The notes beneath the pieces were generated by a model. That model did not search any database. It was not told the DNA's origin and saw only the letters and a program-made list of their open reading frames with translations. Below, piece after piece: positions 475-25,236 of a stretch of DNA of 45,224 nucleotides. Position 1 is the first letter of the stretch; every line of letters begins with the position of its first letter. Source of the DNA: Rhodanobacteraceae bacterium (GTDB taxonomy: Bacteria; Pseudomonadota; Gammaproteobacteria; Xanthomonadales; Rhodanobacteraceae); assembly GCA_035253005.1 (NCBI GenBank), contig DATFCO010000220.1, positions 1 to 45,224 of the forward strand. Reading direction: 5' to 3'. Both the position numbers and the translations under genes were made by a program.

Positions 475-492
475 GTGGGCCGTGATGGGATC
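475..492. repeat. att site at the tRNA-distal ICE end: exact 18-bp direct repeat of the tRNA-Lys 3' end
   Basis: gtgggccgtgatgggatc is identical to 45151-45168. The extended match 470-492 versus 45146-45168 is 21/23. Confidence 0.8.
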
Positions 493-642: not shown

Positions 643-2175
643 CTAACTTCGTACACGACTATGGCTGCGGCGCTCTTGACATCCCCACTCGCACTGGTCA
701 TCAGCGGCAAGGTTTGTGTTTACTCGCCCACCATTGAGAAAGTTCAATGTGGTGATCTCATTCAGCAGCTGGCATTGGTTCTTTAGGACAGTTTGCTGCA
801 GCAGCCTCGCCCCGAGAAGCAGTGCGGCTCCTAAGGAAACGAAGCCGGCAGAAAATTGAGTGGGCGGACGCGTCGCAAAATTATTGAGCGTCGCTTCGCC
901 GATACTTCCGCACTGTGGGTTAGCGAGATATTCCTCGACGGCTTCTACATTCAAGCCTTGCTCGACCAAGAAATCTCTTCGCGCGCCGGGAAGCATCTGA
1001 CGGAGCTGTCGTTCGAGCTCACGGATGTTCTCTCCATCACGCTCTTTGGGGTTAAAGCACGCCAGGCAGGCCGCGCCGGGACGCTGCGAGTACCAATTGG
1101 TTCGAGCGGTCATGTCGAGGGTGCTTCCACCCATCAACAACCGTGGCTGCAGCCCCTGGATGTCCTGTCTGGAGATTCCCTTGTCAACGCAGGACGCGAC
1201 GATCTCGAATTCAGAGTTGTCGACTTGACGAGCAACATCAGATCTGAGGCCCCGTCGAATATCGGAAACATAAGTTTTCACCGTCCCATCGTATGGGAAG
1301 GTCTCAATTCCGCACGCCAGCAATGCGGAAGAGATCGCATCCACCTTTTTGTGGGACACATCCTGTGCGCCCGCAAGAAAACAACGATTCAAATTCGTAC
1401 CGTCGTAAACGTCATCATCTACCAGAATGAAATATCCCTGGTCGAGCTCCATGTTCTGCATCAAATAGGCGAGACCATTTCCAACTGCGCCCAGACCGAA
1501 GATATGGATAGGACAGAGGCTGAGTCCAGACACCTCAGGGCCATCTTCAAGCGCGCACCAATCTTCATTCGATTCACCGGACCACAAGGAATAGCCCGCT
1601 GCGCTCAAGAAACGACCTCGGGTGATACCCCGGGTGCGTTTGAAGACTTCGCCGGCCGCTAACGTAGCTCCAAAGAAAGGCCCAAGCGGATTTCTCGAGT
1701 TGGGAGAGGCATTGCGAGGGGCTTTGTCGGGCTCACCGACCCATGCGCACCAACCATCGGCAATGACTGTGATTACCTGACGTTCCGCTGATAGCGCGAT
1801 CGAAGGAGAAGTGTTGCCGATAAGGATGAGATGATCTGGGTCGTGAACAGTCGCAGATGTGCAGATGGAAACCGCGTCTCCTACGGCCCAGCTCACGAGT
1901 GCCTCAAGGCAGTTGGGGAAGGTTTCAACCGCTTGGCCGTTCGGCAATCTAACTACTGCTGCGGTCGATCTTGCTACCACCTCCAAATGTCTCACTAATC
2001 CAACCTGACGACAAAGAAGATTCACCAGACAAGTGACAAGTAGCTGTCCGGATCGAGAGCTTCCCCACTCATCCGCAACAACAATGCGCACGGACTGAGC
2101 ATCGGGCTGAAGCATATGGGATAGGCCGTCGGCGGGGCGAAGATGCCGGTCGCCAATCTTTTTGACGCCGCTCAT
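643..2175 (-). CDS. bilD: E1-like ThiF-family Ubl-activating enzyme (Bil-type system, BilD-like)
   Basis: 510 aa. Has the GLGAVGNG nucleotide-binding loop, DDDVYDGTNLNRCF (ThiF/E1 D.D....SNLNR-type motif) and a CLAC pair. Its start shares ATGA with the JAB stop (2172-2175). Last gene of the Ubl-E2-JAB-E1 operon. Confidence 0.85.
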   Translation of the reverse strand: MSGVKKIGDRHLRPADGLSHMLQPDAQSVRIVVADEWGSSRSGQLLVTCLVNLLCRQVGLVRHLEVVARSTAAVVRLPNGQAVETFPNCLEALVSWAVGDAVSICTSATVHDPDHLILIGNTSPSIALSAERQVITVIADGWCAWVGEPDKAPRNASPNSRNPLGPFFGATLAAGEVFKRTRGITRGRFLSAAGYSLWSGESNEDWCALEDGPEVSGLSLCPIHIFGLGAVGNGLAYLMQNMELDQGYFILVDDDVYDGTNLNRCFLAGAQDVSHKKVDAISSALLACGIETFPYDGTVKTYVSDIRRGLRSDVARQVDNSEFEIVASCVDKGISRQDIQGLQPRLLMGGSTLDMTARTNWYSQRPGAACLACFNPKERDGENIRELERQLRQMLPGARRDFLVEQGLNVEAVEEYLANPQCGSIGEATLNNFATRPPTQFSAGFVSLGAALLLGARLLQQTVLKNQCQLLNEITTLNFLNGGRVNTNLAADDQCEWGCQERRSHSRVRS

Positions 2176-2705
2176 CTCAGATCCTCTACCTGGACTTCTC
2201 CCGGCACAAGAATCACACGCGCTTTCGCTGACTGCTCGTCGAGGAGATGCCAGTACTCATTCTGCCACTCGTGCACACCCACCCCGCTTGGAAATGCTGG
2301 AGCATGGTTCCCGTAGAAAGGAAACACCATCGATAGTGCCTTCCTGCTGCTCGCCATTTCATCGTCGTATCTTGAGTGCTCAACGTTTGCACCAGGATGA
2401 CTGTGAATTTGCGCCAAGGGCTTCCAGATATCGGGCAGGCGGCGAACCACTTCAGTCAAGGCCTGCGCCGAAACCAAATAATTTCCCCAGCTCATTCGCT
2501 GGCGCGGGGCGACGACATAAGCCACTGTGCCGTTCCCAGCGGCATCTCGAACTCCGTACCACAGCACTCCACTTTCACGACGTCTTGCGGCTCTTAGCAG
2601 AGCAAGTGTCGATGTCAAGGCCGAGAACGGAACCCGAAGCTGAAGGCCATTGGGCTCGTACGCTCGCGCCGATGGTGGACGTAAGACGTCGTCTTCATTG
2701 TCCAT
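2172..2705 (-). CDS. bilC: JAB/JAMM (MPN+) metallopeptidase, Ubl-processing/deconjugating enzyme (BilC-like)
   Basis: 177 aa. Complete JAMM signature: E44 in ESGVLWYG, then H101-S-H103-PGANVEH-S111-RY-D114 (HxHx7Sx2D). Overlaps the E2 stop by 11 nt. Confidence 0.88.
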   Translation of the reverse strand: MDNEDDVLRPPSARAYEPNGLQLRVPFSALTSTLALLRAARRRESGVLWYGVRDAAGNGTVAYVVAPRQRMSWGNYLVSAQALTEVVRRLPDIWKPLAQIHSHPGANVEHSRYDDEMASSRKALSMVFPFYGNHAPAFPSGVGVHEWQNEYWHLLDEQSAKARVILVPGEVQVEDLR

Positions 2706-3216
2706 GTTTTGGAAACGGTCCTTGGTAGAAAGAAGCCATTGCTCTCTTTATTGCGTTGACGGTGGTCCAGAAGTTATTGGTTTCGGACCACAGGTGCTCT
2801 TGCGCGACGTTGTGCTTTATTTCGTAGAACTCCAGAGTGGCCGAACAACAAATGAGCTGGATCTTGTTTGTACCGTGTGGGTAGGCAACATGTGTCCGGC
2901 ATTCTCCGCTCGTAAGCTGCGGAACAAAGTGCTGATCCTGCGGGTAGGAGTAACTCAGCGTCTCCGGATTCACGAACTGCGCGCTGGGAGGCCAAGTCCG
3001 ATATGCATGGAAGCCCAAACGCAGCAGATAATCGTCGGTGTTCCCTTGGTGCACCCCGGAGATCGGGATTAGCAACGTGAGCTTATTCGGGCGCGACCAC
3101 CCTAACTCTTCAATCGAAGTCGCACCGAGCATTCTCAAAACGCGCGGCAGATCCTCCTCCAAGGCCGCCGCGCCCGCCGCGGGATCTATCGCCGGAGATT
3201 CGTTGATTTGCGCCAT
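2695..3216 (-). CDS. bilB: E2-like (UBC-fold) Ubl-conjugating protein (BilB-like)
   Basis: 173 aa. YRTWPPSAQFVNPE resembles the UBC Y..PP...F...NP core. Candidate catalytic Cys at 106 or 123/124 (IQLICCSATLEFY). Its ATG at 3216-3214 directly abuts the Ubl stop. Confidence 0.7.
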   Translation of the reverse strand: MAQINESPAIDPAAGAAALEEDLPRVLRMLGATSIEELGWSRPNKLTLLIPISGVHQGNTDDYLLRLGFHAYRTWPPSAQFVNPETLSYSYPQDQHFVPQLTSGECRTHVAYPHGTNKIQLICCSATLEFYEIKHNVAQEHLWSETNNFWTTVNAIKRAMASFYQGPFPKHGQ

Positions 3217-3519
3217 CTAGGCGCCTCCAGTCTCCGACGCGATGCTGAACCGGTAATCGGTAATAACGCCTTGATCACGTGCTTGTTCCAGCGTCAACCC
3301 GAGATCACCCATCAGAGATTTCGGATGGTGCCCAGCCGTTTGGAAAACGTCCTTGGCTCTGCGCGCGATCTTGAGTTCTACATACGACTTGTCCCAGACC
3401 TGCGCTAAGGTGGCGGTAATAGATTCGGAGAACGTGACCTTCTCGGCTTCTTTGATGTCCTGGACATGGACCTCAACGTGCTTGGGGTGCCGCTTGGATT
3501 CTTCTGCTTGCTCATTCAC
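3217..3519 (-). CDS. bilA: Small ubiquitin-like (beta-grasp) protein with C-terminal ...SETGG-A (BilA-like)
   Basis: 100 aa. GTG start at 3519 with AAGGA 8 nt upstream. C-terminus is GGA-stop (diglycine plus one residue). First gene of the operon with E2, JAB and E1. Confidence 0.72.
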   Translation of the reverse strand: MNEQAEESKRHPKHVEVHVQDIKEAEKVTFSESITATLAQVWDKSYVELKIARRAKDVFQTAGHHPKSLMGDLGLTLEQARDQGVITDYRFSIASETGGA

Positions 3520-3594
3520 TGGAGTGATCCTTCTTGACTGGGGTCTTCAGATATGATTCTATTCGTTGCAGCTGTAGGACGTATTCGATGAGAA

Positions 3595-3610
3595 ACGTAT
3601 CGTCTTACGT
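3595..3610. promoter_or_regulatory. Candidate operator: ACGTA-N6-TACGT inverted repeat just downstream of the putative -10
   Basis: acgtatcgtcttacgt. A third ACGTA half-site lies at 3579-3583. Sits in the divergent intergenic region between the Ubl gene and the XRE gene. Confidence 0.3.
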
Positions 3611-3617
3611 GCGAAAC

Positions 3618-3646
3618 ACTCTACTCGGCAGCGCCTGAGCCGTCAA
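3618..3646 (-). promoter_or_regulatory. Candidate sigma-70 promoter for the Ubl-E2-JAB-E1 operon
   Basis: The minus strand reads TTGACG (3646-3641), a 17-nt spacer, then TAGAGT (3623-3618). It lies ~95 nt upstream of the GTG at 3519. Confidence 0.4.
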
Positions 3647-3678
3647 GACTTGGGCGTTTTTTCGCGCACGGAGAAAAA

Positions 3679-4029
3679 GTGGAATTAAAAATCAATGATT
3701 TAGGAAAGATGGTTGCCGATAAGCGCGGAACTCGTGGGGTTAGGGCAGCCGCTTTAGAAGCAGGCGTGAGCCCCGCGACACTCTCCAGGGTGGAGAACGG
3801 CCACATGCCCGATCTCGCCACTTTTGCCAGACTATGTAAGTGGGTCGAACGAGATCCGCGCGAGTTCTTAGGCATGGAGCTGAGCAACGACCAAGCGACA
3901 ACCCCAACGGCGGTTGTGCATTTCAAGAAAAAGAAGACAGTCGCAATGGACACTGCAACCGCGCTGGGACATTTGATCATTGCTGCGCAGAATGCATTGC
4001 GTGCGCGTGAAAGCCTTCTGGGCAAGTGA
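3679..4029 (+). CDS. XRE-family helix-turn-helix transcriptional regulator (CapH/ImmR-like)
   Basis: 116 aa. HTH segment RGVRAAALEAGVSPATLSRVENG. GTG start at 3679 preceded by GGAGA. An alternative ATG at 3709 has AGGAAAG upstream. Followed 3 nt later by the ImmA-like gene. Confidence 0.8.
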   Translation: MELKINDLGKMVADKRGTRGVRAAALEAGVSPATLSRVENGHMPDLATFARLCKWVERDPREFLGMELSNDQATTPTAVVHFKKKKTVAMDTATALGHLIIAAQNALRARESLLGK

Positions 4030-4032
4030 CCC

Positions 4033-4596
4033 TTGCGACGTGGCTTCAAAGCTCAAGCGGAAAAGAACGCCGCAGCAGCGAGAGCTGCGCTGCAGCTGGC
4101 AGAGATTGCGCCTCTGGACCCTTGGGAGTATGCCGCGCATCTCAACGTGACCATTCTCGATTTCGAGACACTTGGCTTGAATACTCAAGTGACTCGTCAA
4201 TTGATAGAGGTCGATGCTTCAAGTTGGTCAGCAATGACCTTGCAAGAGGGAAATGCTTTTGCGATCGTGATCAACCCTGTCCACGCAAAAGTGCGGCAGC
4301 GGAGCGATCTCATGCATGAGTTGTCGCACATTCTCCTGCGGCATGTTCCCGCTCGCGTAGATGTCGCCCCATCAAAACTGTTGCTCCTGAGTGACTACTC
4401 CGACGAGCAGGAGCAAGAAGCAGATTGGCAGGCGGGAGCACTCCTAGTGCCTCGGGATGGGTTACTGCGTTTGCGCTCGCGCCGGCAAAGCGCGGCAGAT
4501 ATTGCAGAGCATTTTGGAGTCAGCGCCGCACTTTGCGAATGGCGCTTGCGCATGACTGGAGTGGATGTCCAAATGCGTCGCTCTACGAACGGCTGA
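4033..4596 (+). CDS. ImmA/IrrE-family (COG2856) zinc metallopeptidase (CapP/ImmA-like)
   Basis: 187 aa. HEXXH as HELSHILLRH, plus downstream EQEADWQAGALLVPRDGL, typical of ImmA/IrrE. TTG start at 4033, 3 nt after the XRE stop. Confidence 0.8.
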   Translation: MRRGFKAQAEKNAAAARAALQLAEIAPLDPWEYAAHLNVTILDFETLGLNTQVTRQLIEVDASSWSAMTLQEGNAFAIVINPVHAKVRQRSDLMHELSHILLRHVPARVDVAPSKLLLLSDYSDEQEQEADWQAGALLVPRDGLLRLRSRRQSAADIAEHFGVSAALCEWRLRMTGVDVQMRRSTNG

Positions 4597-4623
4597 TGCT
4601 ATTCAATGGTAGTGGTATAGGGG

Positions 4624-4648
4624 AAAACGCGGGCTATATAAGCCCGCG
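4624..4648 (-). terminator. Probable intrinsic terminator of radC
   Basis: 8-bp GC stem cgcgggct/agcccgcg (4628-4635 and 4641-4648) with a 5-nt loop. Followed on the minus strand by TTTT (4627-4624). Overlaps the radC stop. Confidence 0.45.
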
Positions 4649-5116
4649 CTGCGCCATGGAGGTCGCCGTCTCGCCGATGACGAAGTGGTCGAGGACGCGA
4701 ACGCCAATGAGAACCAGAGCATCGCGCAGCTCGCGCGTGATCGCGCGATCCGCCGCGGAAGGTTCTGAGACACCCGAAGGGTGATTGTGCGCGAAGATCA
4801 CGGCGGCGGCATTGTGCCGGATGGAGGCGCGTACGACCTCACGCGGATGAACTGAAGCGCCATCGAGCGTGCCATTGAAGAGCTTTTCGCACGCGATGAC
4901 GCGATGGCGATTGTCGAGGAAGATGCAGTGAAACTCTTCGTGCGGCAGCGCGCCAAGTCGAATGCGCAGGAACTGTTCGGTGTCGCGCGGACTCTTCAAC
5001 TCGGCCTGGCGCTCGAGCCGCCGGCGTAGGATGTCTTCCGCAGCAACGAGAATCTCGTGTTCGCAAAACGGTGTGGTGACGTGATAGTCGTTCAACATGT
5101 CGCGGCGGTGACTCAT
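4634..5116 (-). CDS. radC: RadC-like JAB-domain protein
   Basis: 160 aa from the ATG at 5116 (GGAG RBS upstream). Motifs [20 protein letters not shown] and HPREV are typical of RadC/UPF0758. The longer track ORF to 5290 is Arg-rich and was rejected. Confidence 0.85.
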
Positions 5117-5510
5117 GTCTGATCTCCTTCGGCGCTGGATTGCACCGTGGGAAGTCAGGCGCGTAGCGGGATAGCACCAGCGCACCGCAAGCAAGCGCGC
5201 AGCGCGCAGCGGCGGGCGGAACGCAGTGGAGCACCCCTTGCGGGTTGCGCGGTGCGACCGCGAAGCAATGATGACCACGATAAGGTGCAATTCCCCGCAC
5301 GAAGACAGACATGCAAAGCGGAGCCGCGATCGGCGAATACACGAATCTGTGTTTGCGAGAGACGCGGCGGTGAGTTTCCTGCGTTGCGGAGCGCCAGCGA
5401 ATCAGCGCGCGAACACTTCTTGTTCCAGCATTCGCCTAAGCGCAACCACGACCGATGCGGACGAAGCACGCGCCGCAGAGCCGAATTATTCAGTGATCGG
5501 CAGAAGTGCT

Positions 5511-5981
5511 CTATGAACGCAAGCGATCGTCGTAGATGAACCTACGCACCCTCGTGGCCTTGCAGCGCTTTGCATCCGGATGAGCTGGATTGATCAAGAT
5601 GTTCAGCTCCTCGGGGACGATCACCGAAGGCACCCGAAGAATCGCACTCACCCCTGAGCGCACCCATGTTTCGCCGACCTCGATGGACGTCAGCCCGGCA
5701 GGCTGTGCATCCCATCCAACCGGAGGCCTCGCAATCTCGGTCGCCTCATTGAACACTTCATCCGGAATGTCGATGCGGATGAGATAGCGATTCAATGGAA
5801 GCGAGTGGGTGCCGATGTGGACCAAAGTTTCCAATACGGCCAGCCCGATGTTCGGCGACGAATAGACGATCGCCGTCCCTTTGTCGTTCCAGCGTCCGCC
5901 GGTGTCCTTCGCTCCGGCGCCGGTCATGTCATCGCAGTGGTAGCTCCTCGCTTCGACGGCGATACGCCAAGCGGTGGCCAT
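5511..5981 (-). CDS. RES-domain toxin
   Basis: 156 aa. R-E-S signature elements GGRWN, LAVLE and RVPSVIVP. Its start shares ATGA with the upstream antitoxin stop (5981). Confidence 0.8.
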   Translation of the reverse strand: MATAWRIAVEARSYHCDDMTGAGAKDTGGRWNDKGTAIVYSSPNIGLAVLETLVHIGTHSLPLNRYLIRIDIPDEVFNEATEIARPPVGWDAQPAGLTSIEVGETWVRSGVSAILRVPSVIVPEELNILINPAHPDAKRCKATRVRRFIYDDRLRS

Positions 5982-6550
5982 CAGGCGTACGCGCCCGATT
6001 GCGATTGTTGCAGAATTTTCAGGACTTCCTGGGCGCCGACTGCCGTATCAAGCAACTCGGCCGGTTTGCGATCGCCTAGCGCCGGAACGGGTGTCTGCAC
6101 CCACTCACCGACCCACTTCGCCGCATCGAATCCTTCCGGATTGCCGCTCTCATCGACGATGCGCTGTGCTTCACCGATCAGCTTGCTGACATCCAACACA
6201 CGCTCGCTCTCCGATGGCGACAACGGCTTGTCGTTTTGCAGCTTGCGATGAACAGACTGGATAGCGACCCCCGTCCATCGGCTGAAAGTCTTTTGATCCG
6301 TTCCCAGATCCTTCGCGATTCTTTTGAAGACTTCGGGCGAGACTCCGTAGCGCAGCACTTCGACCAAGAATCCCGGTTCTGCTCGACGGATCATGGTGTA
6401 GGTGTCGCGATCGAAGTCGTCCCTGCCCGTCAGCTTGCGCGCGAGGCCTTTATTAGTCTCCAACATCGCACTTCCCGAGCTGGTTTGAGCGTACGCAGTA
6501 AACCGACCCGCCGCGGCGGACCTCTCGCTTCTCCGAAGAGCCTTACTCAT
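5981..6550 (-). CDS. Xre-like antitoxin with C-terminal DUF2384 domain (MbcA/ParS-type partner of RES toxins)
   Basis: 189 aa from the ATG at 6550 (AAGGAG RBS). The C-terminus ...FDAAKWVGEWVQTPVPALGDRKPAELLDTAVGAQEVLKIL is typical of DUF2384. Translationally coupled to the RES gene. Confidence 0.75.
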   Translation of the reverse strand: MSKALRRSERSAAAGRFTAYAQTSSGSAMLETNKGLARKLTGRDDFDRDTYTMIRRAEPGFLVEVLRYGVSPEVFKRIAKDLGTDQKTFSRWTGVAIQSVHRKLQNDKPLSPSESERVLDVSKLIGEAQRIVDESGNPEGFDAAKWVGEWVQTPVPALGDRKPAELLDTAVGAQEVLKILQQSQSGAYA

Positions 6551-6816
6551 CGTCGTCTCCTTTGAGAGCAGATTATAACTCATTTGAGACAGCAATGTTT
6601 GCCGGCAAAACCCCTCAAAGAAGTCGCAAGTCGAATCCTGTCCTCCCAAGCCATTCCAATGTCAAGGCTTCGCATCACCATGGCGTCTGAGAATTTACTG
6701 ATGCACCGCAAATTCAGCTTGACACAACGGTGTTCTTTGACCTACCTTTGAAAAAACGCCAATAAACGTAGCAGTTTTTTTGCGTTTTTTTATAAACAAA
6801 CAAGAAGAATTTTGGC

Positions 6817-7317
6817 ATGCGCTTTCCTGCCCGTCTCACTTGCTTGGCCTTCACCTCCATCGCCCTTGCCCCCGCTTGGGCGGGTCCCGCGTCGGTGGAA
6901 TCAAACATTGACCGGGCCATCGAGCAGGCAAACGCGATGGTAAAGCTCGGCGTGTCGCAACCCGAAATCGAACGATGGCTGCTGCAGCAAGTGCAAGGCG
7001 ACAGCGACCCCGGCCAAGACTCCCCGGCGACCGTGACAGTCCAGACGGCGCCACCCACGTGGGACGTGTACGCCACCGCCGCTTGGGTGGAGCAGAAAAC
7101 GGCCATGACCGGGGGTGCCGAATCGCAGGGGGAAAACGTTTACATCAGGACTAGACTCGACACGAGCCAGGCGGACGAGGGCCTTATTTATGGCCAAGCC
7201 GAAAAAGCCGATGTCGATCAGCGAGGGACTGAAGCGGCGGACCCTCTACATGCCCCGAACTCCGCGCAGCGAACCGACGATGTACGAGTCGGAGCTGGCG
7301 GACCAACTCGCCAATAA
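6817..7317 (+). CDS. Hypothetical exported protein
   Basis: Clear signal peptide MRFPARLTCLAFTSIALAPAWAGP. Coding-like codons up to ~7110. The 3' third overlaps a better-looking frame starting at 7190, so the true end is uncertain. Confidence 0.45.
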   Translation: MRFPARLTCLAFTSIALAPAWAGPASVESNIDRAIEQANAMVKLGVSQPEIERWLLQQVQGDSDPGQDSPATVTVQTAPPTWDVYATAAWVEQKTAMTGGAESQGENVYIRTRLDTSQADEGLIYGQAEKADVDQRGTEAADPLHAPNSAQRTDDVRVGAGGPTRQ

Positions 7318-7519
7318 CGCCATTCGTCAGCTATGCATCTTCCAGACGGAAGAAGGTTTCAGCCTGAAGGCCTTGCCCATCTGGAAAGATGAGTTCATCA
7401 CTCTGATCGGAACCGCCACGAAGGAGCCTCGCCAATACAAGTCCCTCGACCGTCTGCTCCGCACCATTCAGCAACACGGACCACTGCCGCCGACGCTGCT
7501 GCTCGGCACGCACAAGTGA
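7190..7519 (+). CDS. Hypothetical protein upstream of virB2
   Basis: ATG at 7190 followed by strongly G/C-ending codons (MAKPKKPMSISEGLKRR...). No family recognised. Confidence 0.5.
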   Translation: MAKPKKPMSISEGLKRRTLYMPRTPRSEPTMYESELADQLANNAIRQLCIFQTEEGFSLKALPIWKDEFITLIGTATKEPRQYKSLDRLLRTIQQHGPLPPTLLLGTHK

Positions 7520-7551
7520 TCTAGCACTTCCACTCATTCTTGGAGATTGAA

Positions 7552-7899
7552 ATGGCGTCAACCCGCCTGGCTTCGTGCGGCCCGTTTTTGCAACGCAACG
7601 CCGGTTACTTGCAGTGCTTTCTGAGTTTGACCTTCATGGTGTGCAGCGCGGTGATGCCGCATCTGGCCTTGGCGCAAGACGCGGGTGGCATGGATCTGTG
7701 CACCAAGGCGAACAGTGCGCTGACCTGGATCAAAGAAGGCGTGTTCTTCATCCTGATCGTGGCGGTCATGGGTTCTGGTGTGTTGGCCGCCTTCGGCCGC
7801 ATGTCCTGGCACACGGTCGGTCAGGTACTGATCGGTGCGATCGTCGCCGGTGTGGCAACCGAAGTCGTCACCGCCTTGTACGGCTCGGGTGGGTGCTGA
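7552..7899 (+). CDS. virB2: VirB2/TrbC-type pilin
   Basis: ATG at 7552 with GGAGA 5 nt upstream (the track TTG at 7540 is less likely). Signal-like N-terminus ending ALAQD and two hydrophobic helices. Sits ahead of virB3 and virB4. Confidence 0.75.
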   Translation: MASTRLASCGPFLQRNAGYLQCFLSLTFMVCSAVMPHLALAQDAGGMDLCTKANSALTWIKEGVFFILIVAVMGSGVLAAFGRMSWHTVGQVLIGAIVAGVATEVVTALYGSGGC

Positions 7900-7901
7900 G
7901 C

Positions 7902-8234
7902 ATGGCAAACGGTTTGCGCAGCGATCCTCTCTTCGGTGGCTTGGCCCGTCCACCCGTGTTACTGGGTTTGCCAATTCAAGCGCTCCTCCTGATCACGGCC
8001 AGCAGTGCTTGCGCCTATCTCGTCGCCAACATGCTGCAGACCTCGGTGGCATGGAAGATCGGAGCGCTCGGTGTCGGCGTGATCCTCTACGGGATCGCTC
8101 GCTTGGTCTGCGCCAAGGATCCACGCGCGTTCCGCTACCTCGCATTGCAACTCAACACCAAAGCGATGCACCGCACCCGCAAGTTCTGGCGGGCGGGCTC
8201 GTATTCACCCATGCCACATCGCAAGCGCCGCTGA
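7902..8234 (+). CDS. virB3: VirB3
   Basis: 110 aa from the ATG at 7902, 2 nt after the virB2 stop. DPLFGGLARPP matches the VirB3 signature. One hydrophobic hairpin. Confidence 0.8.
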   Translation: MANGLRSDPLFGGLARPPVLLGLPIQALLLITASSACAYLVANMLQTSVAWKIGALGVGVILYGIARLVCAKDPRAFRYLALQLNTKAMHRTRKFWRAGSYSPMPHRKRR

Positions 8235-8244
8235 AGGAAAAGCC

Positions 8245-10662
8245 ATGTTTGCGCCCAGACAAGGCCTCGCCAATGCGGCAAGGCCACTGACCGACTTCAT
8301 CCCGTATTCCGCGCACGTCTCCGCATTCAACGTGCGAACCGTCGCAGGCGATACGCTCACGACGATCAGGATCGCCGGCGTCGCGCATGAAGCCGCGGAT
8401 GACGAGGACATTCAGGCTTGGCACGACGCACTCACGGGGTTGCTTCGCAACATCGCAAGCGACGATGTTGCGCTGTGGCTGCATACGGTCCGCGAAGCCG
8501 CTGCCGAATATCCGGCAGGCACCTTCGAGAACGACTTCGCCGGGCGGTTGAATGAGCGCTATCGCGCGAGTCTCTCCGGCGTACAGCTCATGGCCAATGC
8601 GCACTATTTGACCTTGCTGGTACGCGGCAAGTCGCGCGGCCGGAAGCTGCTCGACTTCGGCACCAAGAAGACCACCGTCGGCGTGCTCGAATCCATCGCC
8701 GAGGCATCAGCGCGTCTCGACGAGCTGGCCGAAATGGTGCTCTCAGGTTTAAGCCGTTATGCACCACGTCGGCTTGCGACCTATACGCGCAATGGCATTG
8801 TGTACTCCGAAACGCTGGAGTTCTTCTCGTACCTCGTGAATGGCGAATGGCAGCGCATCGCGGTCCCGAAAGGCTGTGCCGCATTTGGAATGGCCAGCTC
8901 GCGCGTCTCTTTCGGCGTCGATCAGTTTGAAATCCGCAGCGCAACCGACAGCCGAATCGGCGCGATGCTCTCTGCGAGCGCCTACCAGATCGAACGGACC
9001 GAACCCGGTCACCTGAATGTATTGCTGACGCTGCCGTTCCCGTTCGTACTCACGCAGTCGTTTGCGATCTTCGGACGTACCAAGGCGATGGCCGCGCTGC
9101 AGAAGCAGCAGCGGCTGCTGATCAACGCCGAGGACGTCTCCCAATCGCAAATTGCCGACATCGGTACCGCCCTGGATGATCTCGCCAGCAACCGCGTGGT
9201 GTTTGGCGAACATCACTTGAGTCTGCAGATCCTGGCCGGCACACAACGCGAGCTGATCGAGCGCCTGTCGGATGCCAAGGCGGCGCTTTCCGAGTGCGGC
9301 TTCGCGACCGTGCGCGAGGACGAATGCGTCGAAGCTGCTTATTTCGCGCAGTTGCCGGGCAACTTCACGATGCGCCCGCGCCCCGCTCCCATCTCCAGCA
9401 GCAACATCGTCGGGTTTACCGGCTTCCACAACTATCCCACCGGACGTCGAGAAGGCAATCAGTGGGGGCCGGCCGTCACCCTGCTGAAGACGGCGTCCGG
9501 CACGCCGTTCTACTTCAATTTCCATCTACCGCCGAGTTCGAAGCGCAGCATCGACGAAGCTGACATCGACGAGCGCGTCCCCGGACACACCCTGCTGCTT
9601 GGACCCACCGGCGCCGGCAAGACGGTCATCCAGACCTTCATGCTGTCGCAGTGCGAGAAATACCGCCCGACCGTATTCACCTTCGACAAGGATCGCGGTC
9701 AGGAAATCTTCGTGCGCGCCCTAGGCGGGCAGTATTTCACTTTAAGAAACGGCGTACCGACCGGCTTCAACCCCTGCGCACTGCCGGACACGCCCGGCAA
9801 CCGCTCGTTCCTGATGCAGCTCGTCAAACGTTGCATCGCCGGCGAAGATCCTCGGTTTCAGTTCTCGCCTTCGCGCGAGCGGGAAATCCACGAGGCGGTG
9901 AATGGCCTCTACATGATGCCGTTCGCCTCACGCCGCTTCTCGGCACTCAAGGAGTTCTTTGATCCTACCGATCCGAACGGCAACGCTGCGCGCTTCCGTA
10001 AGTGGTGCGCGGGCGGATCGCTCGGCTGGCTACTCGACAACGAAGTGGACACGCTGAACCTGGCCACCGGACGACACTTCGGCTTCGACGTGACGGAATT
10101 TCTTGACAACGACGAAACCCGCACCGTGACCGTCATGTACCTGTTCCATCGAATGGAGCAGCTGATCGATGGCCGCCGCTTCATCCTCAATATGGACGAG
10201 TTCTGGAAGATGCTGCTTGATCCAGTATTCGAGGGCAAAGCCCTCGATGCGGTCAAGACCTATCGCAAGCGCAACGCTCTGGCGATCTTCGGCACCCAGA
10301 GTCCTTCGGATGTACTTCGCTCGCGGATCAGTCGCCAACTGATCGAGCAGTGCGTGACGCAAGTGTATCTGCCAAACCCGAAAGCCGCCCGCGAAGACTA
10401 CATCGACGGATTCAAATTGACCGAACGGGAATACGACATCGTCCGCAAGGACCTAGTCGAACAGAACCTCCGCGGCTTTCTCTTCAAGCAAGGCTCCAAC
10501 TCCACCGTCTGCGAATTGAACCTGCGTGGCTTCGAGCCCGAACTGGCGGTGCTTTCGGGTACGGCAGCGTCGGTGGAACTCGCCACGCGGGCCATCGCAC
10601 AAGCGGGCAACGATCCGAACCTTTGGCTGCCCGTCTTCGAACAAATGAGGAGAGCGCAATGA
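8245..10662 (+). CDS. virB4: VirB4 ATPase
   Basis: 805 aa. Walker A LLGPTGAGKT. Size and position are typical of VirB4/CagE. Confidence 0.92.
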   Translation: MFAPRQGLANAARPLTDFIPYSAHVSAFNVRTVAGDTLTTIRIAGVAHEAADDEDIQAWHDALTGLLRNIASDDVALWLHTVREAAAEYPAGTFENDFAGRLNERYRASLSGVQLMANAHYLTLLVRGKSRGRKLLDFGTKKTTVGVLESIAEASARLDELAEMVLSGLSRYAPRRLATYTRNGIVYSETLEFFSYLVNGEWQRIAVPKGCAAFGMASSRVSFGVDQFEIRSATDSRIGAMLSASAYQIERTEPGHLNVLLTLPFPFVLTQSFAIFGRTKAMAALQKQQRLLINAEDVSQSQIADIGTALDDLASNRVVFGEHHLSLQILAGTQRELIERLSDAKAALSECGFATVREDECVEAAYFAQLPGNFTMRPRPAPISSSNIVGFTGFHNYPTGRREGNQWGPAVTLLKTASGTPFYFNFHLPPSSKRSIDEADIDERVPGHTLLLGPTGAGKTVIQTFMLSQCEKYRPTVFTFDKDRGQEIFVRALGGQYFTLRNGVPTGFNPCALPDTPGNRSFLMQLVKRCIAGEDPRFQFSPSREREIHEAVNGLYMMPFASRRFSALKEFFDPTDPNGNAARFRKWCAGGSLGWLLDNEVDTLNLATGRHFGFDVTEFLDNDETRTVTVMYLFHRMEQLIDGRRFILNMDEFWKMLLDPVFEGKALDAVKTYRKRNALAIFGTQSPSDVLRSRISRQLIEQCVTQVYLPNPKAAREDYIDGFKLTEREYDIVRKDLVEQNLRGFLFKQGSNSTVCELNLRGFEPELAVLSGTAASVELATRAIAQAGNDPNLWLPVFEQMRRAQ

Positions 10663-11351
10663 AACGCACGATCTTGGCGATGACACTTGGTTTCGCGCTG
10701 GCCGGCGGTATCGCGGCCGCGATCACGCCGCCGATTACGTACGCACAGGAAATCGTAATCGATCCGGCCAATCTGCAAGAAGCCATCGCGCAGTACATGG
10801 AGATGATCCAGCAACTGGAGCAATTGAAGGCCCAGCTTGATCAGGCCAAGCAGCAGTACGCCTCGCTCACCGGCAACCGCGGATTGGGTTTGATCGATCC
10901 GGAAGATTACAACGCCAACATTCCGACAAACTGGCACGAAACGCTGGCGGCGATGCAGAACGGCGGACAGGTGGGTGCATTGGCAAACCAGATCAGGAAT
11001 GAGGCCTCCGAACTCAGCCAGCCGCAGTTTGCCGGTGTGGATTCAGGCGTGACGCAATTGCTGGGCACGCACATGGACAACGCCGCGACCCAGCAGGCCT
11101 ACAACGCCCAGGTGCTCGATGACAGTTCGCAACGCTTCCAGCGGCTGAATGAACTGATGGCGCAGATCGACAGCACCACGGACATGAAGTCGATCGCCGA
11201 GTTGCAGGCACGCATTGAGATCGAGAACGGAATGCTCATCAACCAACTGCTGCGGCTGCAGGCGGCGAACCAGCTCATGCAGCAGAACAAGGAAGTCCAG
11301 CAGCAGCACGAAACCCAGGACGACTACAAGCTGACCGCCGCGAAGTATTGA
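10659..11351 (+). CDS. virB5: VirB5/TrbJ-like minor pilus protein
   Basis: ATG at 10659 shares ATGA with the virB4 stop. Signal peptide MKRTILAMTLGFALAGGIAAA, then a Q/L-rich coiled coil. Confidence 0.7.
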   Translation: MKRTILAMTLGFALAGGIAAAITPPITYAQEIVIDPANLQEAIAQYMEMIQQLEQLKAQLDQAKQQYASLTGNRGLGLIDPEDYNANIPTNWHETLAAMQNGGQVGALANQIRNEASELSQPQFAGVDSGVTQLLGTHMDNAATQQAYNAQVLDDSSQRFQRLNELMAQIDSTTDMKSIAELQARIEIENGMLINQLLRLQAANQLMQQNKEVQQQHETQDDYKLTAAKY

Positions 11352-11365
11352 TTGGAGAACTTCTG

Positions 11366-11644
11366 ATGAAACGAATTCCGATGCCGCTCTTCCTTGCTGC
11401 CGCGATGGTGGCACTTTCCGCCTGTTCGCACTCCGCCGATCCGGTACCCGACTATCACACGCTGCTGGGCAAGCAAAATCAAGCAAAGCGCGACGCTGCT
11501 TTCGCAAAGTGCAACGAATCTCCAACCCAAGCAGACCGCATCAACAATCCATGGTGCGGCGTCGCAGAAAAAGCCGAGACCTGCCAAGAAGCCATGGACG
11601 CTTACGACGGAAAGCCACCCGCTTCTTCTTGTCCCAAGAAATGA
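11366..11644 (+). CDS. Small lipoprotein between virB5 and virB6 (entry-exclusion-like position)
   Basis: ATG at 11366 with GGAGA 7 nt upstream. Lipobox ALSAC. The mature part is Cys-containing and hydrophilic. Confidence 0.65.
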   Translation: MKRIPMPLFLAAAMVALSACSHSADPVPDYHTLLGKQNQAKRDAAFAKCNESPTQADRINNPWCGVAEKAETCQEAMDAYDGKPPASSCPKK

Positions 11645-11662
11645 CCAGACGGACGATTCAAC

Positions 11663-12733
11663 TTGGCTAACACCCGCATTGCTCACTGGCTGCTCGATTC
11701 GATCGTCACCACGACGACGAACTACGTCAACTCCGCCTCCACAACGATGGTCGCCCTCATCGGCGGCGCGGCGACCGCGTTGCTCACCATCTATGTGCTG
11801 TTGTGGGCCGCGGGGCTCGCGAGCGGGCGAATCAGCGAGCCGTTCACCGATGGCGCGAAACGCGTCATCCGTATCGTCGTCATCGTCGCTTTCGCCTTGA
11901 CGGCCGGCTTCTATCAAGCCCAGGTCGCGCAGTTCTTTCTCCAGACGCCCAGCGCCCTTGCAGCCGATCTGGTCGCGCCGGGTTCGAACTCGGGAAGCTC
12001 GCCTACGACAATCGCCGATGTCCTCGATGACGCGGAGAACCAGGGAATCGAGATTGGCGACAAAGCCTGGTCTCGTGGAAAGTCGGAAGGTGGGGTAAGC
12101 GGCTTGGGAGGCATTGGTTTCTATTTTCTGGCGCTAGTGATCTGGCTTTCGGTCACGGTCATCGTCGCGCTCGCGTGCGGGATCATTTTCATGGCCTTCA
12201 TCTCCACTGCGTTGCTTCTGGCGATTGGTCCGCTTTTCATTCTGCTGGCCATCTTCCGTGCCACTCAGCGCTTTTTCGAAGCCTGGCTCGGTCAGGTCGT
12301 CAATTTCGCCATCCTGTTTCTTCTGGTCGCCTGCGCGATCAGTTTGTGCTTCCACTTCTTGAGCGATTACCTGACGCAAATCAACACCGACCAGTGGGAC
12401 GAGCTGGTCATCGACACCTTGAAAGTCTTCGGCGCGACGCTGGCCACGCTCGCCGTCCTGTTCCAGACACGCGCGATCGCCTCGGCCTTGGGCGGCGGAT
12501 TGGCGCTGCAGACCCAAGGCATGTTCGGACGCTTGGTGGAAATCGGCGTGCTCGGCATCGGTGTCAGCCGTGCGATCGGTACCGGCCATTCCCATAAGGG
12601 CTGGTCACGCGACCGCGCCGAACGCGGATTGCCGATGACTCCGAGTGAACATCTGTCCCGGCACCTGCGCAGCCAAAACGCCTTGGGGCTCGTGAGGCGC
12701 ACTTGGCAGGTCCGCGGCCGAAACGCCGTCTAA
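11663..12733 (+). CDS. virB6: VirB6/TrbL polytopic membrane protein
   Basis: 356 aa with multiple hydrophobic helices, in the canonical position. TTG start, so the exact start is uncertain. Confidence 0.75.
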   Translation: MANTRIAHWLLDSIVTTTTNYVNSASTTMVALIGGAATALLTIYVLLWAAGLASGRISEPFTDGAKRVIRIVVIVAFALTAGFYQAQVAQFFLQTPSALAADLVAPGSNSGSSPTTIADVLDDAENQGIEIGDKAWSRGKSEGGVSGLGGIGFYFLALVIWLSVTVIVALACGIIFMAFISTALLLAIGPLFILLAIFRATQRFFEAWLGQVVNFAILFLLVACAISLCFHFLSDYLTQINTDQWDELVIDTLKVFGATLATLAVLFQTRAIASALGGGLALQTQGMFGRLVEIGVLGIGVSRAIGTGHSHKGWSRDRAERGLPMTPSEHLSRHLRSQNALGLVRRTWQVRGRNAV

Positions 12734-12747
12734 CCAAAGGAACCGAT

Positions 12748-12909
12748 ATGCATCGACTTGCACCGCTATTGCGGGGAGCCTTGGCTATGGGCGCTCTGCT
12801 TTTATTGACCGCCTGCGCTTCCACACCGGCCAAGCCGCCGGAGTGCCACGGCGCCTACACGCCGATAAACACCCCCGACCACTACCCCGCCACGGAGAAG
12901 AAATCGTGA
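12748..12909 (+). CDS. virB7: VirB7-like small lipoprotein
   Basis: ATG at 12748 with AAAGGA RBS. Lipobox LLTAC. 53 aa. Its stop overlaps the virB8 start (TGATG). Confidence 0.65.
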   Translation: MHRLAPLLRGALAMGALLLLTACASTPAKPPECHGAYTPINTPDHYPATEKKS

Positions 12910-13592
12910 TGAACGATTCTGCGGAAACGTTGGCCTTTCTGGATGCTGCCAAGGCTTGGGAAACCGATCAAATCGTCCGCGTGCAACGATCAGAAAGACG
13001 CGCTTGGATCTTCGCGAGCCTCGGGATGGCGACCGCGCTCGCCGCGGTCATTGCACTTGCCCTGCTGACGCCGCTCAAAACGGTAGAACCTTTCGTGGTG
13101 CGTGTGGACAAGAACACCGGCGCGACCGACATCGTGACGCGCCTGACCGATCAGAAAGAAACCTACAACGAAGCGATCGACAAGTATTTTCTCAGCCGTT
13201 ACGTGATCTACCGCAACTCCTACTCGAATGCGATGGCCTACCCGGACTACGAAGCGGTCACAATCATGTCGTCAGCACAGGTAGCCGATTCCTACTTCGA
13301 GCAGATCAAACCAAACAATCCGCATTCCCCAACCGCCGTCTATGGGAAAGATGGTCAGGTCGATGTGTCGGTCAATGCCATCGCATTTCTGGGCAAAGGC
13401 GTGGCGCAGGTGCGGTTCACGCGAACCGAATACCTACCCAATGCGCAGGGCCAAACCACGCGCTGGATCGCAACGATCACTTACCGCTATCTGAATCCGC
13501 CGACCACGGAGAGGGCCCGGCTGGTTGATCCGATCGGTTTTCAAGTCAGCGATTACCGCTTCGATCCGGAAACAGCTCCGACGGGAGGCTGA
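12909..13592 (+). CDS. virB8: VirB8
   Basis: ATG at 12909. A single N-terminal TM helix (IFASLGMATALAAVIALALL) followed by a periplasmic domain, in the canonical position. Confidence 0.8.
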   Translation: MNDSAETLAFLDAAKAWETDQIVRVQRSERRAWIFASLGMATALAAVIALALLTPLKTVEPFVVRVDKNTGATDIVTRLTDQKETYNEAIDKYFLSRYVIYRNSYSNAMAYPDYEAVTIMSSAQVADSYFEQIKPNNPHSPTAVYGKDGQVDVSVNAIAFLGKGVAQVRFTRTEYLPNAQGQTTRWIATITYRYLNPPTTERARLVDPIGFQVSDYRFDPETAPTGG

Positions 13593-13594
13593 CC

Positions 13595-14467
13595 ATGCGC
13601 ATACTTTTCGTTGCCCTACTTCTGATCCCGATGCTCGCTTTCGGAGAAACCATCCCCAAAGGCGGGCCGGTCGATGCCCGCATCAAGACCGTGGTCTACA
13701 ACGCTTCGGATGTGGTCAAGATCGTCGGTCACTATGGTTACTCGACCGACATCGAATTCGCCCCTGACGAGCAGGTGCAAAGCATTGCACTCGGCGACTC
13801 CCTGGCATGGGAGGTTGCCCCATCGGGATCGCACCTGTTCGTGAAGCCACGTGAAGACAATGCAGTCACCAATGCGACCGTGGTGACCAATCGGCGCGTG
13901 TACCAGTTTTCACTCGATGCGCGGCATGCCGCCGGTCTCACGGGCGCCCACAGTGCGGGCATGTTCTTCGAGGTGCGTTTCAGCTATCCGCAGGATGAGG
14001 CAGCTCTCGCACACGCGCAGCGTACAGAAGCAGACCGCGCACTACTGGCGGCGGAACTCGATGCTCCGCCCAAACCCATCAACTGGAACTACTACGCATG
14101 TGGCGAACGCGCGCTATGGCCGTCCGAAGTCTACGACGATGGCCGATTCACCTACTTGCGTTTTCCAAACGCGCAGGAGATCCCAGGCGTCTTCATCATC
14201 AACGCGGACCACACCGAAAGCCTGGTCAACGGCGAAATGCGAGGCGACCAGTACGTGGTGCAAGCGACCACACGCAAGCTGATTCTGCGCCGCGGCCAAT
14301 CCGTTGCCTGCATCGAAAACCGCAGCTACAACCCGCGGGGTGTCGCGACACCCACCGATACGACCAGTCCGGAGGTGCGACGCACGATCCGTGCGCAACG
14401 ATCGCCGGCGGATGTAGGCCCCGCGCAAAGCACGACGTCTGAATCGTCGCAAGGAAACTCCCAATGA
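13595..14467 (+). CDS. virB9: VirB9/CagX/TrbG
   Basis: Signal peptide MRILFVALLLIPMLAFG. VVYNASDVVKIVGHYGYSTDIEF is typical of the VirB9 N-terminal domain. Confidence 0.85.
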   Translation: MRILFVALLLIPMLAFGETIPKGGPVDARIKTVVYNASDVVKIVGHYGYSTDIEFAPDEQVQSIALGDSLAWEVAPSGSHLFVKPREDNAVTNATVVTNRRVYQFSLDARHAAGLTGAHSAGMFFEVRFSYPQDEAALAHAQRTEADRALLAAELDAPPKPINWNYYACGERALWPSEVYDDGRFTYLRFPNAQEIPGVFIINADHTESLVNGEMRGDQYVVQATTRKLILRRGQSVACIENRSYNPRGVATPTDTTSPEVRRTIRAQRSPADVGPAQSTTSESSQGNSQ

Positions 14468-15591
14468 ATGTGTCCCCCGCAGATGAACCCGCAGCGCGTG
14501 GCATTCCGCAGGTGGGCCGGCCGCGCAAAGGCAGCAAATGGCTCATGCTGGTCGTGGTGGCGCTCGGCATCGTACTCGTCATTGCACTTGGCGTTCGAGC
14601 GATGCTCGGTGCACTGACGAGCCGCAACCAAACCTCGCACGTTGCAACCCTTGCGCCCACTCTGCCCGACCTGACGCGCAGTGCCTTCGACAAGCAGACC
14701 GCGCCGCCTCCGCCGCCCACGATGCCGTCCTCTCCGATCGTCGGCGGACAAGCTCCAGCGCCACAAACGCCTGAGCAAAAAGCTGCTGCCGATCTCGCTG
14801 AACGCCGCAAACGGGCGCCGCTGCTTGTGCTCGGCGGCAGCGCCCCGACCAATCAAACGGACAGTTCGTCCGCAGCGCCTTCGACTTTTCCGGGTCTACC
14901 TTCGCTCGCGCAAGCGCATGCCGCGAACACGAATGAGCCCTCGCAAAGTACCCTTTCGAGTGCATTGAGTGCCACGCGCACGACCGAAGTCAGCGCCTCG
15001 CTGCTCCGCGATCCAAACATGACCCTGACTGAAGGCATGTTTCTCGACTGCATCCTGCAGACCGCCTTGTCCAGCGAAGTGCCGGGCATGACGAGCTGCG
15101 TGCTCTCGCGCGATGTTTACTCGACCAACGGCAAGGTGCTGCTGCTGGAGCGGGGTTCGCGTCTGGTGGGCCAGTACCAGTCTGCGCAGCTACGTCAGGG
15201 CCAAAGCCGGATTTTCGTGCTGTGGACGCGTGTCGAAACGCCCGACGGCGTCATCATCGATCTGGATTCGCCCGGAACCGACGCACTTGGCCGCTCGGGC
15301 CTTACCGGTAAGCTCGACACTCATTTCTCTGCGCGGTTCGGCTCCGCGCTGCTGCTCTCGGTCGTCGATGATCTGGCATCGGCCGCCGTGCAAAACGGCA
15401 ATGGCTCGAACAACAACAGCCTGACCTTCACCAATACCACGAATTCGGCCAACGACGCGGCAGCAATCGCCGTCGAAAACACCATCAACATTCCGCCGAC
15501 GCTCACCTTGGCGCAAGGTTCGCACATCAACATCTTTGTCGCGCGCGATCTGTACTTTGGAAACGTGTATGGACTCGCCGCTGCCCGTTGA
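14464..15591 (+). CDS. virB10: VirB10/TrbI
   Basis: ATGA overlap with virB9. N-terminal TM helix, Pro-rich linker (PPPPPTMPSSP), and a conserved C-terminal barrel region. Confidence 0.85.
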   Translation: MNVSPADEPAARGIPQVGRPRKGSKWLMLVVVALGIVLVIALGVRAMLGALTSRNQTSHVATLAPTLPDLTRSAFDKQTAPPPPPTMPSSPIVGGQAPAPQTPEQKAAADLAERRKRAPLLVLGGSAPTNQTDSSSAAPSTFPGLPSLAQAHAANTNEPSQSTLSSALSATRTTEVSASLLRDPNMTLTEGMFLDCILQTALSSEVPGMTSCVLSRDVYSTNGKVLLLERGSRLVGQYQSAQLRQGQSRIFVLWTRVETPDGVIIDLDSPGTDALGRSGLTGKLDTHFSARFGSALLLSVVDDLASAAVQNGNGSNNNSLTFTNTTNSANDAAAIAVENTINIPPTLTLAQGSHINIFVARDLYFGNVYGLAAAR

Positions 15592-18434: not shown

Positions 18435-18456
18435 CCAACTCTCAAAGGAGTTCACT

Positions 18457-19173
18457 ATGAGCAATGAAGCACCCGAACTGCCGGAAGGCGGTCGTGCCCC
18501 CAACAAGCGGCCTTTGAACGAAATCCGTCGTATTGGCGGCGAAAAAGGCAGTCCCGACCGCACCATCCCCGAACACCTGAAGCCGCACTATCACCAGGAC
18601 GGCAACGCCTTCCGCTCGGCCTACCGTCCGGACCGGATCGAGTTCGTGGATCGCGGCAGCCGCATGCACGCCTATTTCCCGATTAGTACCTTCACCGTGC
18701 GCGCGCTCGCGGAGATCGCCGTCGCGCGTGGCTGGAAGGAACTGGAAGTCACGGGCTCCCAGGACTTCCAGCGATCGGCCTATGTCGAAGCCGCCACGCG
18801 TGGGCTGAAGGTCCGCGGCTACGAACCGACGGAAAAGGATCTGGAAATCCTGCAACGCCGATCCGAAAGGCGTGAAGCCGAAAAGAACCCGCTGGTGCAG
18901 GCGTTTCTCGCCGCGGAATCGAAGAAAGACCAAGAAAGCGCAATCAAGAAATATCCGCAGCTCAAGGCGGCATTCCTTGCCGATGCTGCCGCCAAGGCCA
19001 TCGCGGAGGCGAAAATCGATTCGAAGAAGGCTGCGGAGAATTTCGTCTCCCGCTTCCGCGACTCCATTGCAATCGCTCTTCACACAGGACGCGCTTTGCC
19101 TGCGCCCGAAGTTAAAGCAGAACCAGCGCGTCCTTCCAAAATCGAGGAGAGGAACCGGGATCGCTCGCGATAG
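18457..19173 (+). CDS. LPD7-like (large polyvalent-protein-associated domain 7) protein
   Basis: 238 aa. ...ALAEIAVARGWKELEVTGSQDFQRSAYVEAATRGLKVRGYEPTEKD matches my recollection of the LPD7 core. Lys/Glu-rich tail. Immediately downstream of the coupling protein. Confidence 0.55.
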   Translation: MSNEAPELPEGGRAPNKRPLNEIRRIGGEKGSPDRTIPEHLKPHYHQDGNAFRSAYRPDRIEFVDRGSRMHAYFPISTFTVRALAEIAVARGWKELEVTGSQDFQRSAYVEAATRGLKVRGYEPTEKDLEILQRRSERREAEKNPLVQAFLAAESKKDQESAIKKYPQLKAAFLADAAAKAIAEAKIDSKKAAENFVSRFRDSIAIALHTGRALPAPEVKAEPARPSKIEERNRDRSR

Positions 19174-25175: not shown

Positions 25176-25236
25176 AAGACCTCCGCAAACGATCGGCCAC
25201 GGCTGCGAATGCAGCCGCGGAGGAACACGCGGAGGT

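Follow-up and report, generated by a model that had tools for sequence, protein, structure and literature searches.

Gene content of the locus

The window analyzed here is a stretch of 45,224 nucleotides (positions 1 to 45,224 of contig DATFCO010000220.1, assembly GCA_035253005.1) from a Rhodanobacteraceae bacterium, and it contains an integrative and conjugative element (ICE). Close to the left end of this element lie two rightward genes, the first encoding an XRE-family helix-turn-helix (HTH) protein and the second an M78 (ImmA/IrrE) zinc metallopeptidase, and, divergent from them, a leftward operon encoding a ubiquitin-like protein (Ubl), an E2-like protein, a JAB/JAMM deubiquitinase-like peptidase, and an E1 (Table 1). 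The likely role of the two-gene pair in controlling that operon is the subject of this report.

Table 1. Coordinates of the regulator pair, its control region, the divergent operon, and the left attachment site in the window
Feature	Positions	Strand	Evidence or composition
XRE-family repressor gene, CapH-like	3679-4029	+	GTG start; GGAG ribosome-binding site; 116 aa
M78/ImmA-IrrE zinc metallopeptidase gene, short CapP-like	4033-4596	+	TTG start; 187 aa
Candidate Ubl-operon promoter	3618-3646	-	-35 TTGACG (3646-3641), 17-nt spacer, -10 TAGAGT (3623-3618)
Candidate XRE-peptidase promoter	~3534-3563	+	TTGACT, 17- to 18-nt spacer, TG-extended weak -10 (TTCTAT)
Operator-like array	3576-3618		AGGACG (3576-3581), GAAACG (3592-3597), CGTCTT (3601-3606), GAAACA (3613-3618)
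Ubl gene, predicted single beta-grasp, 100 aa	3217-3519	-	GTG start at 3519; C-terminal ...ETGGA
E2-like protein gene, 173 aa	2695-3216	-	Gene order, Sinorhizobium homology, conserved residues
JAB/JAMM deubiquitinase-like peptidase gene, BilC-like, 177 aa	2172-2705	-	Prok-JAB E = 5e-5; PADLOC BilC E = 5.5e-6
E1 gene, BilD-like, 510 aa, last gene of the operon	643-2175	-	ThiF E = 1e-12; PADLOC BilD E = 6e-26
Left attachment repeat TGGGCCGTGATGGGATC	476-492		17-bp perfect direct repeat; partner at 45152-45168 inside tRNA-Lys

A first-pass annotation made from the DNA letters had called an XRE gene and a Zn-peptidase gene 3 nt apart, the latter with HELSH and a second sequence motif, transcribed divergently across 159 bp from a Ubl-E2-JAB-E1 operon. 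The coordinates of the pair stand as called, the gap being TGA ccc TTG, and the products match Pfam HTH_3 (E = 1e-5, above the gathering score) and Peptidase_M78 (E = 1.7e-13); among PADLOC models, capP fits the peptidase best (E = 1e-9). The divergent arrangement is likewise borne out by the open reading frame positions and by the Bil-type matches of the E1 and JAB proteins. The TTG start of the peptidase gene is supported because homologues align from residue 1.

The zinc site is intact. In the peptidase, HELSH occupies residues 95 to 99 and EQEADWQAGALLVP residues 126 to 139, and all four positions of the site (H95-E96-x-x-H99 plus E127) are invariant or nearly so in an alignment of 30 relatives with 35 to 81% identity, all of them 184 to 199 aa long. 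E96, H99, and E127 are invariant in close and wider alignments alike, and H95 is invariant among close relatives and conserved at more than 90% in the wider set. The predicted structure (predicted local distance difference test score, 91) consists only of the M78 domain and a short helical C terminus, and its top fold matches are IrrE (3dti/3dte) and PprI (8slm), with probability 1.0 and template modeling scores of 0.49 to 0.55.

The repressor is predicted to consist of an HTH domain at residues 5 to 64, a variable low-confidence linker at 65 to 89, and a C-terminal helix at 90 to 113. A conserved motif, AVVHF82-K83KKKTV, sits in the linker ahead of the helix. Fold matches of the repressor model include DdrO and the N-terminal domain of CapH among generic XRE HTH proteins, and no sequence match was found between the C terminus of the repressor and the C-terminal domain of CapH.

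Association of the regulator pair with diverse defense operons

Relatives of the peptidase are encoded at 45 loci taken from GTDB genomes, onto which the proteins of the window were mapped. Wherever both genes occur, which is at 41 loci, the XRE gene directly precedes the peptidase gene on the same strand. Co-occurrence of the pair with E1-type operons was a point raised in the first-pass annotation; the operon facing the pair is Bil-like at 7 of these 41 loci and another ThiF/E1 operon at 16, several of the latter carrying Multi_ubiq together with a DUF6791-ThiF protein (6E/Bub type). At 7 further loci it is a cyclic-oligonucleotide-based antiphage signaling system (CBASS), with a CD-NTase and either an SAVED-HNH or a patatin effector, and the rest are uncharacterized. 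The relatives that face CBASS operons (L007, L014, L017, L019, L021, L025, and L030) are 52 to 69% identical to the pair of the window. The same divergent layout was found in two contigs from metagenomes or metagenome-assembled genomes and on two plasmids.

The reverse combination, a related operon with a different regulator, was found on plasmid pSfreGR64b of Sinorhizobium fredii (L140, positions 849 to 5479). Its Bil-like operon is homologous to that of the window (47% identity for the E2-like protein and 35% for the E1), and it is paired with HTH and ImmA/IrrE proteins of 118 and 296 aa, the latter a long peptidase unlike that of the window; the two regulator pairs have no detectable sequence similarity. 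Homologous Bil operons thus stand beside unrelated regulator lineages, and regulators and cargo have therefore recombined repeatedly.

Conserved control region

The intergenic region between the Ubl start (3519) and the XRE start (3679) is 159 bp long. For 23 loci that differ in their cargo, the sequences preceding the XRE gene were aligned, and promoters and half-sites were counted over 29 loci. The sequence CGTCAAG, the reverse complement of which carries the TTGACG -35 element of the candidate Ubl-operon promoter, is invariant or nearly so in the 23-locus alignment, with a TAnAnT -10 element at a distance of 17 to 18 nt. This leftward site scores highest of the minus-strand sigma-70 matches in 14 of the 29 loci, and in 25 of them a -35 hexamer at its offset ranks first or second on that strand. 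Closer to the start of the cargo, many loci have TTGAC and TGATTC at a constant relative position, where they would supply the weak rightward promoter.

The half-site boxes of the operator-like array are conserved columns of the alignment across cargo types. Two of them form an imperfect palindrome, GAAACG-TAT-CGTCTT, at 3592 to 3606, and the GAAACA box abuts the leftward -10 element. A palindrome of the window's form is present in 21 of the 29 loci, and RARACR half-sites, (A/G)A(A/G)AC(G/A), occur 3.1 times per 100 bp compared with 0.38 in shuffled sequences, an approximately 8-fold enrichment in a test that is partly circular because the pattern was derived from the sequences counted. A generic inverted-repeat search missed the imperfect palindrome, which cross-locus comparison alone revealed, and no Rfam family was found in positions 3300 to 4800. 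The pair and its control cassette are co-inherited: the two genes and the promoter/operator region move as one module across cargo types.

As judged from consensus matches only, the putative promoters face each other, with inferred starts about 40 bp apart and the operator boxes between them, whereas divergent genes are usually assumed to be transcribed back to back. If both promoters are real, a single repressor array placed between them could therefore shut off both transcripts.

The same comparison bears on whether the pair might instead be a toxin-antitoxin or addiction module, in which an XRE antitoxin and a COG2856 peptidase toxin would stabilize the cargo or the ICE. Predictions of toxin-antitoxin systems include XRE-COG2856 pairs, and the antitoxin-first gene order agrees with such a module. 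There is a weak NCBIfam match to the "spr1629 family repressor/antitoxin," and PDB entry 7t5t bears the title "CapP toxin." Such a module would, however, leave unexplained both the strict divergent linkage to defense operons and the cargo-facing promoter at a fixed offset. Moreover, the characterized relatives work as transcriptional regulators, and the ICE already has a RES-Xre toxin-antitoxin pair 1 kb away, so that an addiction function for the M78 pair is very unlikely.

The divergent operon is Type II Bil-like

The operon fits the Type II Bil group (CEHH/6C) by its gene order and its multidomain E1. The best PDB match of the E1 is the E1 (BilD) of the E. aridi system (8tyz; E = 4.9e-7), and a Pfam BilD_N domain is recorded for a protein identical to it. 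The JAB protein scores just under the Pfam cutoff for Prok-JAB, and the JAMM motif HSHPGANVEHSRYD (HxHx7Sx2D) is readable in its translation. The E2-like protein shares 47% identity (E = 7e-59) with its positional counterpart in the S. fredii plasmid operon, which has the order multiubiquitin-E2-JAB-ThiF, and residues C106, H109, C123, C124, E129, and H135 are invariant in the alignment, a pattern compatible with the CEHH type. Neither single-sequence nor profile searches with this protein gave a match in PDB (including the chains of the E. aridi system), Pfam, or NCBIfam, and the Sinorhizobium E1 and E2 also lacked PDB matches; the Type II assignment therefore rests on architecture and not on close homology. 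The Ubl had no match in family-model searches, and its C-terminal SETGGA is invariant in all 7 Ubl homologues. The window Ubl lacks an N-terminal coiled-coil-like extension of approximately 50 aa that is found in most of its closest homologues (L002, L004, L008, L011, and L018; approximately 140 to 150 aa).

Type II BilABCD operons share with this one the Ubl-E2-deubiquitinase-E1 order, a multidomain E1 of approximately 500 aa with BilD_N, and divergent regulators upstream; they may also share the CEHH type of E2-like protein, since a Cys, a Glu, and two His residues are kept in the one here. The single beta-grasp predicted for the Ubl is also a Type II feature, and the N-terminal coiled coil of its relatives is one reported for five Type II Ubls. 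In contrast, the E. aridi reference system is only distantly related at the level of the E1, it offers no PDB match for the E2-like protein, and it comes from a member of the Rhizobiaceae, whereas the operon of the window is carried by an ICE in a gammaproteobacterium of the Rhodanobacteraceae.

The pair is cargo in the end slot of an ICE

The element is complete at approximately 44.7 kb and integrated in tRNA-Lys. The 17-bp attachment repeat has 2 exact copies where 0 are expected, and the integrase gene (43718 to 45079) adjoins the right-hand copy, so the pair does lie at the end opposite the integrase, where the first-pass annotation had placed it. Copies of the ICE in other metagenome contigs (L048 to L052) are 100% identical to the window only from positions 475 to 478 rightwards, and their left flank differs, being of the formate/nitrite transporter type in place of the MlaE type of the window. 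Identical copies with different left flanks fix the left end of the element and point to insertion at two separate sites or in separate hosts. Read from left to right, the element carries the Bil-like operon, the regulator pair, RadC, a RES-Xre toxin-antitoxin pair, a VirB-type type IV secretion system, Cus/Czc/Cop metal resistance genes, a relaxase with NikA, ParB/KorB with ParA, and the integrase.

Sister ICEs were found via VirB4 homologues; a metagenome scan with RadC yielded only distant RadC genes in unrelated contexts. The closest sister (L136/L137) has a VirB4 93% identical to that of the window and 85% DNA identity over window positions 4616 to 19173, the homology starting 20 nt past the peptidase stop codon. 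Its slot (positions 3495 to 6154, corresponding to window positions 643 to 4615) holds a UvrD-like helicase and, in the opposite orientation, a different Bil operon with Pfam matches to BilA_UBL_2, BilB-like, JAB, and BilD_N, which is probably of Type I, and no XRE or M78 homologue is present in this sister ICE. A more distant relative (L138; VirB4 84%) carries MerR/MerC and a resistance-nodulation-division (RND) pump in the same slot. The slot is a cargo hotspot that has captured ubiquitin-like systems twice and has been exchanged between two Bil types and metal resistance genes. Because the sister ICE shares the backbone and lacks the pair, the pair is exchangeable cargo and independent of the ICE backbone.

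These comparisons speak strongly against a second proposal of the first-pass annotation, in which the pair would serve to induce its own ICE and would govern excision or transfer genes in the manner of ImmR/ImmA. The ICEBs1 ImmA peptidase is short and GAF-less, as is the peptidase here; the two-gene layout is the same as in ICEBs1, and the pair is located inside an ICE. Against such a role, besides the missing homologues and different slot contents of the sister elements, VirB4 and RES neighbors are lacking at all 45 loci that encode a relative of the peptidase (one has a weak match to the Xre antitoxin, and two distant ones have a RadC homologue), and the pair is absent from 39 loci that have RadC relatives. 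The operator palindrome has no second site above chance within the ICE. The RadC gene converges on the peptidase gene and thus shares no promoter with the pair, and the backbone has a ParB/KorB-type regulator of its own near the integrase end, the KorB-like protein being a likelier candidate than the XRE/M78 pair for regulating the backbone. We consider it extremely unlikely that the pair is the switch of the ICE.

Proposed mechanism of control

Taken with its conserved linkage to defense operons, the pair is probably, and in our view with considerable confidence, a repressor-protease module of the CapH/CapP kind, with the adjacent Type II Bil-like Ubl/E2/JAB/E1 operon under its control. The six genes and the 159-bp control region would form one portable cargo cassette (approximately 643 to 4596) just inside the left end of the ICE. 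That the pair makes the ubiquitin-like system inducible, the other proposal of the first-pass annotation, is strongly supported by the comparative genomics.

We infer the DNA binding, the cleavage and its site, the promoters, and the signal as follows. The XRE protein would oligomerize via its C-terminal helix and bind the half-site array, between and just downstream of the two face-to-face promoters; because the array is placed at both promoters, binding would repress the operon and the regulators themselves. Upon a stress signal, which by analogy with CapH, IrrE, and ImmA could be DNA damage or single-stranded DNA, the zinc peptidase would cut the repressor between the HTH domain and the C-terminal helix. 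A candidate cut site is the F82-K83 bond of the conserved VVHF82-K83KKK motif. Once parted from the oligomerization element, the HTH domain would lose its hold on DNA and the operon would be transcribed.

The best-studied precedent is the CapH/CapP system, which was defined on CBASS (E. coli MS115-1 and Thauera), similar pairs also adjoining 6A and 6E ubiquitin-like operons (Lau et al. 2022). The E. coli CapH represses; CapP cuts it between F82 and R83 when single-stranded DNA is present, and the cut form derepresses. The cut lies at the start of the C-terminal oligomerization domain of CapH, and truncated CapH no longer represses. The parallel between this cut and the F82-K83 bond is suggestive. 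The CapH/CapP name was later extended to pairs beside Type II Bil, Bub, 6A/6E, and DISARM operons: of 162 Type II Bil operons, 25 have CapH/CapP upstream, with a single exception to the divergent orientation (Chambers et al. 2023, preprint), and CapH and CapP accompany 168 of 544 Bub operons (Ye et al. 2024).

The module of the window resembles CapH/CapP in that a Pfam06114 peptidase gene comes after an XRE HTH gene, both divergently placed upstream of a defense operon with a shared control region; in the HExxH-plus-Glu active site of the peptidase; and in a repressor of approximately 110 aa in which an HTH domain is joined to a small C-terminal element, residues 82 and 83 being a conserved aromatic-basic pair. 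Relatives of the pair also adjoin CBASS operons, as CapH/CapP do, the window copy facing a Bil-like operon. CapP, in contrast, comprises a metallopeptidase, an HTH-like linker, and a GAF domain at the C terminus, with a cysteine switch in 33% of CapPs, and the Thauera chain 7t5t has 291 aa compared with the 187 aa of the window peptidase. The positions of the operators also appear to differ, that of E. coli MS115-1 lying upstream of the -35 element and the candidate operator of the window between the two promoters.

Several observations weigh against the assignment to a CapH/CapP-like module. The peptidase lacks the GAF domain of characterized CapP in its predicted structure, and no Cys occurs between HExxH and E127 in it or in the 29 other aligned sequences, so that no cysteine-switch loop is present. 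Similarity to CapP is visible only by profile and is weak (E = 0.006 for the family profile against 7t5t and E = 0.09 against IrrE), and the peptidase, the repressor, and the C-terminal 52 aa of the repressor each gave no meaningful match in PDB when searched as single sequences. The rightward candidate promoter is a poor consensus match, the circularity of the half-site count has been mentioned, and the E2-like and Ubl proteins were identified by synteny and indirect homology.

Two other families supply analogies. The pair shares with ImmR/ImmA of ICEBs1 and phage phi105 a short GAF-less peptidase, cotranscription of repressor and protease, divergence from the regulated operon, and a location on an ICE; unlike the operons that ImmR/ImmA face, the one here is defense cargo and not xis or transfer genes, and the pair is absent from the sister ICE. 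With DdrO/IrrE (PprI) of Deinococcus it may share cleavage of an XRE repressor near the C-terminal dimerization region, IrrE and PprI being the top structural matches of the peptidase. IrrE, however, has a GAF domain and controls a dispersed DNA repair regulon, and the irrE gene is not, as here, adjacent to and cotranscribed with its repressor gene.

DNA damage is borrowed as the signal from the characterized CapP, IrrE, and ImmA, and the peptidase here is without the GAF domain of CapP and IrrE. The pair could switch the Ubl operon in response to something other than DNA damage, such as a protein of a phage, or the entry of the element by conjugation, with its single-stranded DNA and lack of repressor. 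The GAF domain and cysteine switch that are thought to gate CapP and IrrE are missing from the peptidase, and the cassette sits on a conjugative element. Nothing speaks directly against such a trigger, but the characterized family members respond to DNA damage or single-stranded DNA, and the site at which CapP binds single-stranded DNA is not known to be the GAF domain. We regard a trigger other than DNA damage as rather unlikely.

A bolder version, which we hold to be unlikely, is that the peptidase lineage without GAF domain or cysteine switch and the fixed face-to-face cassette constitute a distinct "plug-in" regulator with a signal unlike that of canonical CapP, one that could tie expression of the defense operon to transfer of the ICE. 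In that event expression would begin in a new recipient cell, as long as repressor has yet to build up, or upon activation of the peptidase by the single-stranded DNA of transfer, and the ubiquitin-like defense of the ICE would be timed to conjugation and not to chromosomal DNA damage.

Significance of the regulator lineage

The arrangement itself has already been published; what differs is the regulator lineage, a minimal form of the peptidase without the presumed sensor domain. Together with its control cassette the pair is a portable unit that has been reused before Bil, other E1, and CBASS operons, and homologous Bil operons in turn recruit unrelated regulator lineages, while one end slot of an ICE family swaps two Bil types and metal resistance genes. 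In the search for what Type II Bil and Bub systems act on and what triggers them, a compact copy that carries a recognizable repressor-protease switch would be of practical use for activating a system of this sort. The candidate operator and cleavage-site sequences are ready for direct testing.

Other genes of the element and gene-calling artifacts

RadC, a JAB-like protein, is encoded convergently with the peptidase gene, and after it come genes for a RES toxin and an Xre/MbcA/ParS antitoxin (4634 to 6649); these RadC, RES, and Xre genes belong to the conserved ICE backbone and are 83 to 89% identical in the sister ICE. The metal resistance cargo (19334 to 29400 and 34093 to 38286) encodes a CusA/CusB/OEP-type RND pump, a CDF transporter, a multicopper oxidase, CopB, and a heavy-metal P-type ATPase with YHS and HMBD domains. 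A MarR regulator gene lies at 29936 to 30475 and one for a CheR-like methyltransferase at 31217 to 32074. Near the integrase end (38881 to 42279) are genes for a relaxase (MobA/VirD2-like), a NikA-like protein, a ParB/KorB-like protein, and ParA.

In the contigs L048 to L052, gene callers reported the peptidase as 94 aa or missed it and reported the JAB protein as 52 aa. The apparent mutations in these peptidase and JAB genes were rejected as gene-caller artifacts, the DNA being 100% identical to that of the window. A TTG start and overlapping genes are easily misannotated, and such pairs may in this way be hidden from annotation-based surveys.

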